Virus record (IMG/VR): IMGVR_UViG_3300017784_007549
Span: 32,001-96,000 of that record
Strand: one strand, 5' to 3'
Length of the DNA: 64,000 nt
Source: a virus
Both the position numbers and the translations under genes were made by a program. Below the pieces are notes generated by a model. It ran no database searches. It was given only the letters and a program-made list of their open reading frames with translations, and was not told where the DNA came from. Shown one piece after another: positions 14,548-32,804 of this stretch (position 1 is its first letter; each line of letters opens with the position of its first letter).

Positions 14548-17500
14548 ATGGCACAAGGGAATAATCAATTACAGGTTAATGTAGTAGCTAATGTAAGGGC
14601 CGCTCAAGCTGCCATTAATAAATTAGCGGCTAAACCAGTTAATTTGACCATTAATCCTAAAGGATTTAGTCAGCCTTTAGGAAAAATACAAGGGCAATTA
14701 GGTGAATTTGAAAAATCGTTAGAAGCGTCTAACGCTCGTGTTATTGCGTTCGGAGCCTCTGCTAGCGCCATTTACGCTGTTCAAAAAGCCTTTTCAGAGA
14801 GCGTTAAGTCTGCTATTGAAGTAGAAAAAGCTCTGAAAGATATTAACGTTATATTAAATTTAACAGATCAAAGCTTGGGTCAGTTTGGAACAAGTCTTTT
14901 TGATATTGCTAAAAATACAGGTAATACATTTTCAGCAGTTGCCATAGCCGCTACAGAATTATCTCGTCAAGGTTTAGGAGTTAATGAAACTTTAAAAAGA
15001 ACTCAAGATGCTCTTATATTAACTCGTCTTTCTGGATTAGGTGCGGCTGAATCTGTAGAAGCAATTACAGCTACTCTTAATGGTTTCCAAAAAGCAGCTT
15101 TATCATCTACAGATGTTATCAATAAATTAGCCGCAGTTGATGCCAATTTTGCTGTTAGCTCTGGTGATTTAGCTGAAGCTATTAAAAGAGTTGGTAGTAG
15201 CGCAGAAGATGCAGGAGTTAGCTTTGATGAACTTCTTGCTATTGTAACTTCTGCTCAACAAATTACTGCGCGAGGTGGTTCAGTTATTGGTAATAGCTTT
15301 AAAACAATTTTTACAAGACTACAAAGACCAAAAGTTTTAGAAGATTTACAACAATTAGGAATTGAAACTCAAACTGCAGAAGGCAACACAAAGCCTTTAA
15401 TCCAAATTTTAAGTGATCTCGCAAAAACATTTGATGTTTTGAACGATAGTCAAAGAGCAGCTATTGCAGAACAAGTCGGTGGTGTTTTCCAAATTAATAT
15501 TTTAAAAGCTGCGTTAGGAGATTTAAACAAAGAATATTCGGTTTTTTCTAATGCTTTGAAAACTTCTACTGGTGCAACTGACGAAGCTATAAGAAGAAAT
15601 GAAGCTTTAAATACAACTCTTGCATCATTAATAAATAAAACTCTAGCTAATTTAACTGCAGCTGGGGCAAAAATTGGTGAATTAAGTCTTGCTCCAGCCT
15701 TAAAAAAAGTTTTTGGTGGATTGAATACTGTATTAGAAAGTTTTGGAAGTGGCGATAGTGAAGATTTTGGTTCTAAAATTGGAGAAGGTTTACTTAAAGG
15801 CATAGGAAACTTTTTAAGTGGTCCGGGTATTATTATTGCAACAAAAGCTTTATTTAGTATTTTTGAAAGATTAACTGTATTCTCAGCAGATGCAGTTAAA
15901 ACTCTTTTAGGGTTAAATGTGCAAGCAACTCAGCAAGCTCAAATTCAACAACAAATAAATACTTTATTAAGTCAAAATCCATCAATTATAGCTCAAATTG
16001 TCAGTGGACAAACTACCTTACAAGATATACAAGATAATATTTTGAATACAATTAAAGCTCAAACTCTTGCGATGGAACAACAAGTAACCTTATCAAAAGC
16101 TTTAGCTACATCATTAAGTGCAGCTGGAGTTTCTATTGGTGCTTCTGGAGCAACTAAAGGGAGATTGCAAGCTAAAGCTGGTGGATACATGCCAAATGCA
16201 TTCAAGCAAGAAGAAGCTAGTGCCATGAATTTGGGCGCAGTAAACCCAAAAGCTCAATTTTCAAAAGGTACAATTGGTGGCAAAAAATTTATTAAAAATA
16301 ATAAAGAAATTGAAATTCCTAATTTTGGTAAAAATGGAGATTCAGCAGTTATTCCAATGTATGGATCAGTTGGTGATAAAAGACAAAAAGAACTTTATGA
16401 TAAATTAAAGTTTTTGGGATTTGTGCCAAATTTTGCGCAATTAGAAGATATTGAATTAAAAGGATATCAAAAGAAGGTTGGTGTTTTATTAGGAACTGGC
16501 GGATCTGGTCTTGTAGATTATACAGAACCTGCTTCACAAATTCCTGCACTTAAAGGACAACCTGAATTCAAAGGTAAAAGAATTGTACTTAAAGGTATTC
16601 CTACAAAAGGAGCTTTTCCATTACCAGAAGAAGGAATACAAGGAGCAGAAAAACAATTTGATTCAGTTTTATCCCCATTACTTCGTGATGGTTTGCAAAG
16701 TTTTTCTGAAGCAGTTGGTAAAACAATTCTTGGCAGAAATCCGCAACAAAAACCTAAAGGTGGAGATGTTTATTCTGCATTACAACAAGGAACAAAAGGT
16801 GATATATTTGAATCTGCTGTTCGAGGCGCATTAACAGAAGGGAATTTAGCTGGAGGAGCTGGTCAAGGAGCATTTGACTTTAATCCAAAATCTCCCGCTC
16901 AAAAAGCATTAGTAGATTTTTTTGGTATGGGATTAGGGCCAGATGCTAGAATTGAAAGTAAAATTGGCGCGCAAGCAGCAGAAAATATTCCATCTAAAGT
17001 TATTAGAACATTTACAAACGCATACGCAAATTTAGGAATTACAAAAGAAACAGGAAAAAGAAGTAGCAAAAAACCCGGATTTGGAGCAAAACCTGCCAGA
17101 TTTCAAAATGTATCTGATGGTTTTATTCCTAATTTTTCTAGTGTCAAAGATGCAATGGAAACGGAAAAAAAGATGGGTGGAAGTCCTGCGCTTGATTTCC
17201 AAGAAGGAGTTGGATTATACGTTAGAGATAGAAACACTCAATCTAATTTCTCTGCAGTTAAAAGAGATCATCCAGAAGGTATTAATCAAGCAATAGAAAA
17301 TTCTAGAAAAGCACAAGAAAATCTTGCTAGAGGATTTATCCCTAATTTTGCTTCAACTGCAAGTAGCAATATTGCGAGTAATTCTTCAAATGCTGGAATG
17401 GACGTTCTAAAAAAAGTTTTTTCTGATAAAGAATTACCAAAAGGAATACAAAAATTTAAACAAAATATATTTTTAACTTCATTTGCTTTTTCAACTTTGC

Positions 17501-19824
17501 AAGGGTTAGTAGAATCTTTTAATAAAGATGGAAAAAGTGCATTTGGAAATATTCTTTCTGGCGTATCGCAAGGAGCGTCAACATTTACTTCTCTTGCTGG
17601 AGTTATCCCCGGCCAAGTAGGTTTAATTGTTGGAGCAGTAGCTGGCTTAACTCAAGCTATAGATTCTGTAGCTACAAGCTTTTTAAATGCAGATATTGAA
17701 GAAATAATAAAACAAAGCGCGCAAACTAGTGAAGATTTCAGTAAATTAAGTGATGCAAGTCAAAAATATGCCGTAGCTTTTCAAAAATTACAAGAGATAT
17801 ATAAAAGTAATTCTTCTTATAAAGAAGTTGATAAAGCTGAAAGAGACTTATACGAATCTTTACAAAATATTCCACAAGAATTTAGAAACTTATTTGCTTC
17901 GGCAAGAACTTTAACAGAAGTCCAAGATTTAATATCAAAATCACTTTCAGAAAAAGGAAAAGAAAAAGAAGGCGGAGAATTGGCAAAATTTTTAGGACAA
18001 TCAGTTATTCAAAATAGAGGATCTCCAGTTGGAAGACTTTTAAATTTCGGATCAGCTGGTGGGGCTGAAAAAAATGCAATTTATAGTGGTAAAAAAGGAA
18101 TGAGTTTAGCTACGGAAACCGCGGGACAAATTACGAATAAATTAAGTAGTAAATTTTTAGATGATTTTGAAAATGGATTAATAGATACAACTCAAAGTGG
18201 TTATAATTTTATTAAAATGTTAAAACAATATGGAATTGACGCTCAATCAGCTAGTATATTAACAGGTATATTAGACGACAGTTTACAGGATGGCGAAGGA
18301 ACTACAAAATTATTAGCAAATGCATTATATGAAGAATCTGCAGCGAGAGTACAAGCTATAAAAAAATATAAACAAGGACAAAAAACTAGAGAAGAAGCTC
18401 AGGCAATTGAAGCAGAAGAAGTGAAAATAAAAAGACGTTTAACTGCAGAAACAGAAAATGCTGCGGCTATTTCAGAAATGTATTCAAATGCTCTTCATAG
18501 AACAGCATTACAAGAAAAGAAATTAATTGATATTAGAAGATCGTCTCAATCAGAAATTATTGCTGAAGCTTCTAGATCCAGATTACAAACTGCACAACCG
18601 TTCCTTAGTGAAACAAGTATGGCAAGAGGTCAATATCAAAACGAAGCATTCCAAAGAAAATCTAATTTTCAAACAAAGCAATCGGATATTATGTCTTCTG
18701 CTATTGAACAAATTAGTACTAATTTATCTGAATCTATACAAGGAGAAATAAATAAATTAAGAAGTGAAAATGCACCAAATTCTAAAATTCAAAAATTACA
18801 AAAAAGAAAAGGCGAAATAGCCAATATAGTTCGTCAAGGAGAAAGTCCAGCGCAGATAAGCCAAGCTTTAGAACAATTAGGTCAAGAATTAGCTTTAGAT
18901 GATCAAGCTATTTTAGCTCAAAAAGCAAATGAAATCCTAGCGAACATACAAAATGATCAGCAAAATGCTTTAGTTGAATATCAAAAAGGAAATAATATAG
19001 CACAAGAACAGTTAAGAAATCAATTAATACAAATTCAAGATCAACAAAGATTAAAAGTTGCAGGTGGCGTACAAGGATTTTTAGATCCAAATTCATTCCA
19101 AACTACTTTTGATAATTTTACAAAAAATTTAAATCTATATCGCGAAGAAGGATCAAGATCAGTAATTGCAAGAGGAAGAGGAGCCGCTGGATTACTTTCA
19201 AATACTTTAGATTTTGCAGGAGGAGGATTGCCAATAGGAACTGGTGGAGAATTAGAAGCTTTAAGATCAGAAGCTATTCTTGGAAGAACAGTAGACATAA
19301 GAAATCAATCAAGAGCACTTGGCGCAGATGCTCCGATAGGATTAAGACCAGTATTTAGAGATATCTCTGCAAATGCTAGCGAAATTGCAGCTAAACAAAT
19401 CGACAATTTAATTAAAGATCAAAACATTGGAGATAACGTAGATAAAATAGCCACAACATTACAACAAATTCAAACATCATTAACTCCAAATCTTGGTCCG
19501 ACTAATAATGCAACTCAAAGCTTTGTAAATCAAAGAAATTCAGCTGCAACTAATGTAGCCTCTGCACTACAACCTCTAAAAGGTTCTGTAGATTTAAATA
19601 TACCAAATAATCTTTTAGCTTTGAACGTAAATGGTAAAATATCAGTAGAAGGAGGAAACGTAGAAGTAACATTATCTCCAGATTCTGATCTTACAGCATT
19701 AGTTACTCCAATTATTAATAATTTCATGAATACAGCTAAACAAGATATTAAAAATGAATTTAATAATAGAATATTAAAACTCAGAGAAGAGGCAGGACTA
19801 AGGAGGGAAGCAACAGCAGTATAA
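14548..19824 (+). CDS. Tape measure protein (TP901-family N-terminal domain) with internal inserted modules
   Basis: 1758 aa, A/Q/L-rich helical; TP901-like ELSRQG...GNSFKTIFTRL...AEQVGGVFQ; hydrophobic segment; GF[IV]PNF repeats. Confidence 0.9.
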   Translation: MAQGNNQLQVNVVANVRAAQAAINKLAAKPVNLTINPKGFSQPLGKIQGQLGEFEKSLEASNARVIAFGASASAIYAVQKAFSESVKSAIEVEKALKDINVILNLTDQSLGQFGTSLFDIAKNTGNTFSAVAIAATELSRQGLGVNETLKRTQDALILTRLSGLGAAESVEAITATLNGFQKAALSSTDVINKLAAVDANFAVSSGDLAEAIKRVGSSAEDAGVSFDELLAIVTSAQQITARGGSVIGNSFKTIFTRLQRPKVLEDLQQLGIETQTAEGNTKPLIQILSDLAKTFDVLNDSQRAAIAEQVGGVFQINILKAALGDLNKEYSVFSNALKTSTGATDEAIRRNEALNTTLASLINKTLANLTAAGAKIGELSLAPALKKVFGGLNTVLESFGSGDSEDFGSKIGEGLLKGIGNFLSGPGIIIATKALFSIFERLTVFSADAVKTLLGLNVQATQQAQIQQQINTLLSQNPSIIAQIVSGQTTLQDIQDNILNTIKAQTLAMEQQVTLSKALATSLSAAGVSIGASGATKGRLQAKAGGYMPNAFKQEEASAMNLGAVNPKAQFSKGTIGGKKFIKNNKEIEIPNFGKNGDSAVIPMYGSVGDKRQKELYDKLKFLGFVPNFAQLEDIELKGYQKKVGVLLGTGGSGLVDYTEPASQIPALKGQPEFKGKRIVLKGIPTKGAFPLPEEGIQGAEKQFDSVLSPLLRDGLQSFSEAVGKTILGRNPQQKPKGGDVYSALQQGTKGDIFESAVRGALTEGNLAGGAGQGAFDFNPKSPAQKALVDFFGMGLGPDARIESKIGAQAAENIPSKVIRTFTNAYANLGITKETGKRSSKKPGFGAKPARFQNVSDGFIPNFSSVKDAMETEKKMGGSPALDFQEGVGLYVRDRNTQSNFSAVKRDHPEGINQAIENSRKAQENLARGFIPNFASTASSNIASNSSNAGMDVLKKVFSDKELPKGIQKFKQNIFLTSFAFSTLQGLVESFNKDGKSAFGNILSGVSQGASTFTSLAGVIPGQVGLIVGAVAGLTQAIDSVATSFLNADIEEIIKQSAQTSEDFSKLSDASQKYAVAFQKLQEIYKSNSSYKEVDKAERDLYESLQNIPQEFRNLFASARTLTEVQDLISKSLSEKGKEKEGGELAKFLGQSVIQNRGSPVGRLLNFGSAGGAEKNAIYSGKKGMSLATETAGQITNKLSSKFLDDFENGLIDTTQSGYNFIKMLKQYGIDAQSASILTGILDDSLQDGEGTTKLLANALYEESAARVQAIKKYKQGQKTREEAQAIEAEEVKIKRRLTAETENAAAISEMYSNALHRTALQEKKLIDIRRSSQSEIIAEASRSRLQTAQPFLSETSMARGQYQNEAFQRKSNFQTKQSDIMSSAIEQISTNLSESIQGEINKLRSENAPNSKIQKLQKRKGEIANIVRQGESPAQISQALEQLGQELALDDQAILAQKANEILANIQNDQQNALVEYQKGNNIAQEQLRNQLIQIQDQQRLKVAGGVQGFLDPNSFQTTFDNFTKNLNLYREEGSRSVIARGRGAAGLLSNTLDFAGGGLPIGTGGELEALRSEAILGRTVDIRNQSRALGADAPIGLRPVFRDISANASEIAAKQIDNLIKDQNIGDNVDKIATTLQQIQTSLTPNLGPTNNATQSFVNQRNSAATNVASALQPLKGSVDLNIPNNLLALNVNGKISVEGGNVEVTLSPDSDLTALVTPIINNFMNTAKQDIKNEFNNRILKLREEAGLRREATAV

Positions 19825-31675: not shown

Positions 31676-32804
31676 GGTTAAAAATATAAAGATTATTTAA
31701 TTCTTTGCTTAATTCTGAATCGTTAAGGTATTTATTAGACATATCTTTTGTTTGCCATTGATATTTGCTATTGAATTGACCTTCGGAAGATATTAAGATT
31801 CGCGAAGATTTAAAGTATGTATTATTACTTATTTCAATTTTATCAGTTGGGTCATCTCGTTTTACAATAAGACCATAATCCATATAATGCAATTTAAATT
31901 GATTTAACTCTTCTTCCGAGAGATAAGATATAAAAGCCGCATTAATAGTATTTATTTTTAATGTCTTTGCAAAAGATGCATCATTATCTTTTTCAACAAT
32001 ATAAATTAATTGTGGAATATTTTGCTTGTATTTTTTGAGAAGTTCTTCGTTGATAGGTTTATTAGTAAATATAATACATTTCTTTTGCTGTAAGAATAAC
32101 TCTAATACTTGCTCATTAAATGTATAATCCATTCTAATAATAAGGGTATCTATTCCAATTTGGGCTGGATTTATGGGTTTATCTGGAATTATTTCTAGCG
32201 TTTTATTGACATATTCATTTCCAATATAAACAGTATTAGGAAGATTACCATATGGAATATTAAGTAGTTTAAGAATACCTTCTGCAATAGCTTCTGGTTT
32301 AATATTGTTAATACTTTTTGGAGTTTCATTAACAGAATATTGAGGCTTCTTATTTATTTCAGGATTTAAAAGAACCATATCTTCTGGTTTAGTCCAATAC
32401 GGTTTAACATTATTAATATTATTATTAGAATACAATGCAACAATTTTCTTACCATATCCAGAAGCGATATGTGCAGCAAAACTATCTGCACCAACATGCA
32501 TTATACCGTTTTTAATAATATATGCTGATTGAGGAATATTTGTTTGACCACATAAGTTTAAAGTGTTATTAATAGCTTTATCATCTTTTGCGCCAATATG
32601 AACTAATGTGATATTATTTTGTTGCAAATAAGGAAAAATTATCGCTACTACTTCATCCCAATAATCATAATTTTTTGATTGATATTTGCTAAAAGGTTGA
32701 AATGATATATACTTTTCAACATTGATTGGAAAGAAAGTATCATAGATATAAGGTTTATCTATCTTAACTCCGCAAGCAGTGGCATATCTTTCAATTAAAT
32801 GCAT
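31665..32804 (-). CDS. GT-B glycosyltransferase (GT9-like)
   Basis: HVGADSFAAHIA...ALYS GT9-type motif; SKNYDYW. Confidence 0.75.
   Translation of the reverse strand: MHLIERYATACGVKIDKPYIYDTFFPINVEKYISFQPFSKYQSKNYDYWDEVVAIIFPYLQQNNITLVHIGAKDDKAINNTLNLCGQTNIPQSAYIIKNGIMHVGADSFAAHIASGYGKKIVALYSNNNINNVKPYWTKPEDMVLLNPEINKKPQYSVNETPKSINNIKPEAIAEGILKLLNIPYGNLPNTVYIGNEYVNKTLEIIPDKPINPAQIGIDTLIIRMDYTFNEQVLELFLQQKKCIIFTNKPINEELLKKYKQNIPQLIYIVEKDNDASFAKTLKINTINAAFISYLSEEELNQFKLHYMDYGLIVKRDDPTDKIEISNNTYFKSSRILISSEGQFNSKYQWQTKDMSNKYLNDSELSKELNNLYIFNLDQ

Follow-up and report, generated by a model that had tools for sequence, protein, structure and literature searches.

Introduction

Tape measure proteins (TMPs), the rulers of phage tails, carry a few built-in activities, and those of T5 and lambda are cut during tail maturation. 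In polymorphic toxins such as CdiA and Rhs, a short conserved peptide (VENN in CdiA and PxxxxDPxGL in Rhs) borders a hypervariable domain and marks the point of recombination. Here, we analyze a 64,000-nucleotide (nt) stretch of viral DNA, positions 32,001 to 96,000 of the IMG/VR virus record IMGVR_UViG_3300017784_007549, referred to below as the window. It holds a TMP gene whose product contains three internal modules, which we call c2, c1, and c0, set apart by copies of a junction peptide, GF[IV]PNF[AS]. These peptides mark the exact points of whole-module exchange between related phages. One seven-residue peptide fences inserted modules across a large family of uncultured freshwater and marine phages. 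The central module, c1, has the behavior of an allele that evolves fast and is traded horizontally, and it keeps an invariant, enzyme-like site.

Functional pieces within TMPs take several described forms. In mycobacteriophage TM4, a muralytic motif (motif 3) is embedded in the TMP (Piuri and Hatfull 2006, PMC1796659), and in Thermus phage P23-45, the virion RNA polymerase is fused to the TMP (Chaban et al. 2024, PMC10770324). The T5 TMP, pb2, is cut after R1127 into pb2* and an enzymatic (muralytic) C-terminal piece that remains in the tail (Linares et al. 2023, PMC10038345). This piece, pb2C, is 92 amino acids (aa) long, and TMP cleavage has been demonstrated only for T5 and lambda, with the catalyst unknown (review, PMC12617516). 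TMPs also make contact with entry factors of the inner membrane, and defense proteins such as SNIPE bind to TMPs (bioRxiv 10.1101/2025.11.03.685801).

The locus described here resembles TM4 and P23-45 in that its putative functional domains are built into the tail ruler and would act at the start of infection. It differs from them in that their domains have recognizable homologs and no repeated fencing peptide, whereas c1 is an orphan, and allele-like cassette exchange has not been described for the TM4 and P23-45 domains. With CdiA and Rhs, the locus shares a conserved demarcation peptide, a sharp drop in identity, and variable domains common to several backbones. Unlike the variable domains of these toxins, however, c1 is internal, is fenced on both sides, and is carried by a virion protein, and nearly all of the cassettes seen here match one hidden Markov model (HMM) with one conserved site rather than being unrelated folds. 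No immunity gene was seen, and none is expected, although no search aimed at immunity genes was made.

Exchange of modules at the junction peptides

Exchange at the motifs is our firmest result, and it comes from comparing the window's TMP (the query) with its relatives. In one group of close relatives (P0009 to P0022), identity to the query was 93 to 98% over the N-terminal 545 aa, 88 to 93% in c2, 74 to 82% in c0, and 77 to 88% over the C terminus, with a drop to 11 to 27% in c1. Three other relatives (P0006, P0007, and P0025) had N-terminal backbones 42 to 70% identical to that of the query and c1 modules 59 to 79% identical. In pairwise protein alignments, identity ends directly after LGFVPNFA and restarts at GFIPNF; in the alignment with P0006, the identical stretch runs from the second motif to the last one. 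DNA comparisons with three relatives gave the same kind of profile, falling from 66 to 84% (mostly 70 to 83%) to 36 to 68% at nt 16468 to 17097 and then rising to 71 to 93%, with breakpoints mapped on relatives that are ~70 to 80% identical. A first-pass annotation of the window, made from the sequence alone, had proposed that the motif brackets modules and is a processing or recombination boundary, and this collapse and return of identity bears out the module and recombination parts of the proposal.

Among 745 pairs of TMPs with backbone identity of at least 85%, a count in which some entries occur twice, as protein cluster and as locus, c1 was less than 35% identical in 469. On a backbone tree of 168 TMPs, the c1 type changed 100 times, compared with a minimum possible number of 76 and with ~135 changes when labels were shuffled. 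Even the query's own tight clade (distance of ≤0.064) contains three c1 types. The short modules c0 and c2 are likewise exchanged. We prefer exchange over hypermutation of c1 in situ, which we rejected, because c1 types differ in length and the same type recurs in distant backbones.

When inserts between the motifs were catalogued across homologs, their content proved variable rather than invariant. The first-pass annotation had gone further and described the TMP as a vehicle for swappable effectors. The swapping is real, as c1 types are common to different backbones, but what is swapped is a set of divergent alleles of one orphan family and not a menu of effectors. The junction peptides may also offer a natural design rule for in-frame module swaps in a tail protein.

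A second variable zone, fenced by no motif, follows the last junction peptide. Here, aa 934 to 1300 (window positions 17352 to 18450) are only 45 to 83% identical among TMPs that are 93 to 98% identical N-terminally.

The junction peptide and the modules that it separates

The family was assembled from a word-indexed search, which gave 270 TMPs, and from HMMER, run exhaustively on 1.84 billion representatives, which gave 239 clusters. All matches came from freshwater-lake and marine metagenomes and were long, TMP-like proteins or pieces of such proteins. Every family member (>200 clusters of TMPs) carries the motif, in 2 to 11 copies per protein, and 499 instances from 120 homologs gave the consensus [KA][AS]xGF[IV]PNF[AS]. 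In a six-frame scan of the entire 109-kb record (about 72% complete), the hexapeptide was confined to the TMP gene. This restriction to one gene, together with its recurrence in homologs, argues against chance, and GF[IV]PNF[AS] is a genuine family-wide junction peptide. A literature search found no mention of it in a phage context.

Two other accounts of the motif were rejected. Among 286 DNA instances, each of the seven motif positions shows variation in synonymous codons, and any two DNA copies have a median of 17 of 21 bases in common; because synonymous sites vary freely, selection must act on the peptide rather than on the DNA, which rules out a DNA-level repeat. A general protease site across virion proteins was set aside since the hexapeptide is absent elsewhere in the incomplete 109-kb record. 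We also discarded an intein. The region has no Cys, the cassette begins with Ala/Ser-x after the motif and ends with Pro-Asn-Phe, and no splicing nucleophiles, splicing blocks, or Pfam intein families (searched with the protein and 64 c1 members) were found.

The motif positions read from the DNA in the first-pass annotation all matched on translation, as did those of three short sequences within c1: GDIFE (nt 16798), FDF (nt 16873), and ESK (nt 16954). That annotation had listed five motif sites as punctuating the stretch, and these are not equivalent. Three sites are canonical (aa 624, 858, and 929), and a fourth, at aa 545, is degenerate in the query, reading GGYMPS in close homologs and taking canonical forms (GFVPNL/GFIPNF) in more distant ones. 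The remaining one, IPNF at aa 590 (nt 16315), lies within EIEIPNFG (aa 587 to 594, nt 16306 to 16329), which AlphaFold 2 (AF2) places inside a β-strand of the first short module, and it is no boundary.

To define modules, we split each protein at its motifs and clustered the resulting segments. Three main families emerged: c0, of 71 to 72 aa (170 copies); c2, of 78 aa, which alignment identifies as a paralog of c0; and c1, of 220 to 330 aa (105 copies). The usual order, found in most of 120 proteins, is an N-terminal ruler of ~545 aa, then c2 or c0, c1, c0, and a C-terminal ruler. The most conserved module of the family is c0, which is the best-matched stretch of the query in many hits. The c1 HMM matches 177 of 251 proteins, c1 sits at the same place in nearly all members, and no member was seen in which the c1 site is empty.

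The middle of the protein had been described beforehand as a helical TMP broken by a non-helical stretch. An interruption is indeed present, but AF2 predicts it to consist of mixed α/β modules joined by linkers. In the model of the whole aa 540 to 940 stretch, which had a predicted local distance difference test (pLDDT) score of 69 and no Foldseek or VIA matches, the motifs are located in low-confidence linkers (pLDDT of <50) that separate folded modules.

Some relatives hold additional modules of 111 to 460 aa, none of which matched a Pfam family, or a duplicated c1. The duplications suggest that the array is able to grow by duplication at the joints. One protein (P0070) repeats the pair c2-c1, and another (L139:3205-5325) has two c1 modules. 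The sole recognizable enzyme domain in the family is a PF01832 glucosaminidase, which lies near aa 2100 to 2280, a long way downstream, with no motifs to fence it.

A profile search for stand-alone c1 among 5.8 billion proteins, restricted to lengths of 117 to 581 aa, returned 11 unannotated proteins, mostly on contigs of <3 kb. It also returned P0256, a 542-aa open reading frame (ORF) on a 163-kb contig that begins mid-TMP, spans a short module and c1, and ends with GFVPNFL followed directly by a stop codon. This ORF may come from a natural split of a TMP gene at a joint between modules, from a frameshift, or from an assembly break.

A conserved site in an orphan domain

Although c1 sequences diverge strongly, they conserve a Glu, an Asp, and a (D/E)-x-K in the same order, as column counts over 105 members show. 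In an alignment of 64 diverse c1 sequences with a mean column identity of 15%, G751 and K805 were invariant (64 of 64 each). F754 and D777 were each conserved in 63 (the remaining residue at 777 being Glu), and F792 was conserved in 62. Glu occupied position 755 in 56 sequences and Asp in 8, position 803 held 50 Asp and 14 Glu, and position 817 held 59 Lys and 5 Gln. The three short sequences GDIFE, FDF, and ESK, previously singled out as the key motifs of this region, hold these invariant residues. The set looks like a catalytic or ligand-binding site, as judged from the pattern of conservation.

An AF2 model of c1, built from the 64-sequence alignment, was confident overall (pLDDT of 84.6 and predicted template modeling score of 0.75) and more so at the conserved site (pLDDT of 87 to 94). 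The predicted chain begins with four strands and a long helix and continues through the Glu helix, the Asp loop, a helix, the (D/E)xK strand, and helices with K817. Foldseek gave no matches to this model in the PDB or BFVD at an E value of ≤0.001, and a second look through the Foldseek list yielded nothing. With VIA-align against 48,161 chains, the best match had a Z score of 4.6 and a root mean square deviation of 2.6 over 48 residues, covering the long helix only, and an ESM Atlas look-up of c1 gave no usable match. Neither the HMMER search of 1.84 billion representatives nor the profile search of 5.8 billion proteins found c1 homologs outside these TMPs, and we therefore regard c1 as an orphan domain.

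Possible roles of the insert

The middle of this TMP is a conserved three-module insert (c2, c1, and c0) jointed by the junction peptide GF[IV]PNF[AS], in which c1 is exchanged. We consider the following account of it reasonably likely. The modules would travel inside the tail as beads on a string and, when infection starts, would exit together with the TMP, in the way that lambda and T5 TMPs exit their tails. On exit, c1 would meet a variable host component, so that new alleles would be favored and would spread by recombination. The conserved joints would be the only places where swaps keep the protein working, and their 21-nt coding islands could supply microhomology. Since TMPs are exposed to entry factors and defenses, a c1 exposed at entry would face diversifying selection, which fits an enzyme with a variable surface and a pure binding domain alike. 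On this account, c1 is a new orphan domain that likely works where phage and host meet as the DNA enters, the step at which TMP-sensing defenses act.

The junction peptide itself would most likely be a flexible joint that doubles as a maturation-cleavage site of the T5 pb2 type, and cleavage at the peptides would free the modules. The T5 cut site is SFVPR/AEGG (cut at the slash), and no other [FY][IV]P occurs among the 1220 codons translated for pb2 (1219 aa plus stop). Like T5 pb2, the TMPs of this family bear a non-ruler, putatively functional piece set off at a defined site, and F-[IV]-P-x-(x)-A is common to the T5 cut site and the junction peptide. In 19 of 194 long family members (e.g., P0045, P0051, and P0063), the last motif lies 54 to 126 aa before the C terminus, and a last motif ~100 aa from the end in some members compares with the 92-aa length of pb2C. 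The two systems differ in that T5 has one site with Arg at P1 and this family has 3 to 11 internal Asn-Phe sites. They also differ in that the T5 cut has been mapped, whereas here there is a resemblance of sequence, with no profile similarity past the short peptide. The window's TMP itself has no canonical motif near its C terminus, where a loose version, NIPNN, lies 72 aa before the end (nt 19600 to 19614).

Several points weigh against this picture of a jointed, host-exposed, and possibly cleaved insert. Three folded domains of 27 kDa per TMP trimer would be too large for the lumen of a normal tail tube. The likeness to the T5 site spans four residues, and short-module HMMs scored no better against T5 pb2 than against shuffled controls, for which reason we rejected the idea that the short modules are homologous to pb2C. 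With a resemblance this short and profiles no better than shuffles, cleavage at the motif remains something that we infer. The Asn of the first site (aa 545 to 551) is missing in close relatives, so Asn is dispensable in some copies. Genome collections gave only metagenome-assembled genome bins, and because these span unrelated phyla, no host call could be made. Finally, there is the duplication within the 745-pair counts mentioned above. Overall, we think that the chances of the junction peptide being a TMP cleavage site of the T5 pb2 kind, an argument by analogy, fall somewhat short of even. The peptide is a candidate consensus for TMP processing.

Alternatively, c1 could be non-enzymatic, a host-contact or specificity domain that, for example, engages an inner-membrane DNA-entry protein or presents the surface seen by TMP-binding defenses, with the junction peptides serving as uncut flexible joints or as docking strands for the tube or the assembly chaperone. 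Hypervariability of a recombining, cassette-type kind is typical of receptor-binding and immune-exposed domains, and Foldseek and VIA-align found no enzyme fold. The insert also lies between the TMP's only two strongly hydrophobic segments (Kyte-Doolittle scan). TMP regions set the inner-membrane complex used by lambda-like phages and are bound by the SNIPE nuclease (bioRxiv 10.1101/2025.11.03.685801). However, with column identity averaging 15%, the strict invariance of an acidic/acidic/acidic-x-Lys/Lys set is what one would sooner expect of a catalytic or metal-binding domain than of a variable binding surface, and we hold a purely contact-making c1 to be possible rather than probable.

The residue pattern had led the first-pass annotation to a PD-(D/E)XK-like domain, and in its fullest form, this idea makes c1 a PD-(D/E)XK nuclease that is excised at the flanking motifs and injected as a swappable effector against host or competitor DNA. 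The order of the invariant residues, Glu in a helix (G-x-x-F-E), Asp, and (D/E)-x-K in a strand, is that of the superfamily, and order and spacing fit motifs I to III plus a following Lys. The Glu helix G-x-x-F-E resembles those of Mrr_cat and Hjc, extreme divergence that spares just the catalytic residues is typical of restriction nucleases, and c1 is basic, with a net charge of +7. With a greedy setting, hhalign placed the FE, D, and xK of c1 opposite their Mrr_cat counterparts. This match to a 31-sequence Mrr_cat alignment, the sole family compared profile to profile, nevertheless had a probability of only 0.1 to 0.2% and an E value of 0.3 to 0.4.

Other searches lent the nuclease idea no support. 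Pfam contained no PD-(D/E)XK family matching the whole TMP or any of the 64 c1 members at E values up to 10, and no family was matched by more than one member. The HMMs of Mrr_cat (PF04471) and Hjc (PF01870) had no matches in the genome, and phmmer and profile searches of PDB sequences with c1 returned nothing relevant, the profile search yielding only a spurious lectin. No restriction-endonuclease-like fold was matched by Foldseek, VIA-align, or hhalign against Mrr_cat, despite a confident AF2 model. The predicted topology is also noncanonical, as the model lacks a strand linking the Glu helix to the Asp and a helix separates the Asp from the (D/E)xK strand, although the core could be a permuted one. 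What survives of the PD-(D/E)XK assignment is the residue order, without a profile or fold match to go with it. A nuclease activity for c1, as suggested by its sequence, strikes us as doubtful, and the same holds for an injected nuclease effector.

A cell-envelope hydrolase would be a third reading of the conserved acidic residues. In this case, c1 would cleave peptidoglycan or polysaccharide with two carboxylates in an undescribed fold and would be the counterpart of the muralytic motifs in other TMPs. Muralytic domains are a common TMP-embedded enzyme, as in TM4 motif 3 (PMC1796659) and T5 pb2 (PMC10038345), and the acidic residues of c1 are invariant. On the other hand, c1 showed similarity to no hydrolase, lysozyme-like or otherwise, at the level of fold or family (Foldseek, VIA-align, and Pfam), and TMPs that carry the PF01832 glucosaminidase retain c1 as well, so c1 is not simply the muralytic domain of the family. 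We regard a hydrolase as unlikely.

Less likely still is a bolder combination of these ideas, in which the TMP would be a virion polyprotein cut at every joint, by a protease or by Asn-driven self-cleavage. Into the host it would release a metal-dependent nuclease that is polymorphic and whose PD-(D/E)XK-like fold is undescribed or permuted, with alleles traded like those of CdiA and Rhs toxins; this would amount to a tail-borne phage equivalent of polymorphic toxins. Finally, a selfish, in-frame homing-type nuclease that cuts TMP genes with other c1 alleles during coinfection and spreads by gene conversion out of the conserved flanks would account for replaced tracts whose two ends each fall at the closest conserved sequence and for the nuclease-like residue set, but it is highly improbable given that there is neither fold nor profile evidence of a nuclease, that c1 is at the same place in nearly all members with no empty sites seen, and that c0 and c2 are exchanged too.

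The tape measure gene and its surroundings

The features of the TMP gene are collected in Table 1. Its product is, by its domain and family matches, a TP901-type TMP; the PF10145 match scored 110.8 bits against a curated cutoff of 33.2. It is encoded by the largest ORF in the window and is flanked by other large ORFs on the + strand, none of which matched a PHROG family and hardly any of which matched a Pfam family. Cultured phages align with the N-terminal core of the TMP alone, at 26 to 29% identity, and tblastn against 50,697 phage records found no cultured-phage relatives of the 390-aa multimotif region. The record as a whole has a G+C content of ~30%.

Table 1. Features of the tape measure gene, in window coordinates
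Feature	Residues (aa)	Position (nt)	Strand	Evidence
Tape measure protein gene, 1758 aa		14548..19824	+	ORF and translation; PF10145, E value of 1e-31; twelve PHROG tape-measure families
PhageMin_Tail (PF10145) core	121-312	14908..15483	+	Pfam match
Hydrophobic segment 1, 5' of the insert	421-446	15808..15885	+	Kyte-Doolittle scan
Degenerate junction peptide GGYMPNA	545-551	16180..16200	+	Translation
Short module c2 (predicted helix, β-strands, helix)	552-623	16201..16416	+	Clustering, alignment with c0, AF2 pLDDT of 77-84
Junction peptide GFVPNFA; left cassette-exchange breakpoint	624-630	16417..16437	+	Translation, alignments
Large module c1; orphan, hypervariable, exchangeable cassette	631-857	16438..17118	+	105-member cluster, HMM, AF2, mosaicism
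Conserved core of c1: G751, F754, E755, D777, F792, E803-x-K805, K817		16798..16998	+	Column counts
Junction peptide GFIPNFS; right cassette-exchange breakpoint	858-864	17119..17139	+	Translation, alignments
Short module c0	865-928	17140..17331	+	170-member cluster, consensus
Junction peptide GFIPNFA; breakpoint versus P0006	929-935	17332..17352	+	Translation, alignment
Hydrophobic Gly-rich segment 2, 3' of the insert	1010-1044	17575..17679	+	Kyte-Doolittle scan

If both hydrophobic segments were to insert into the host membrane, the three-module insert would form a loop on one side of it.

At the left end of the window, a 586-aa ORF (positions 611 to 2371, + strand) has a short match, over aa 318 to 333, to BppL_N, the N-terminal domain of a lower baseplate protein (PF18338, E value of 1.9e-8). 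About 12 kb separate this ORF from the TMP gene, which lies downstream of it, and the ORF precedes five paralogous genes whose products are 260 to 280 aa long.

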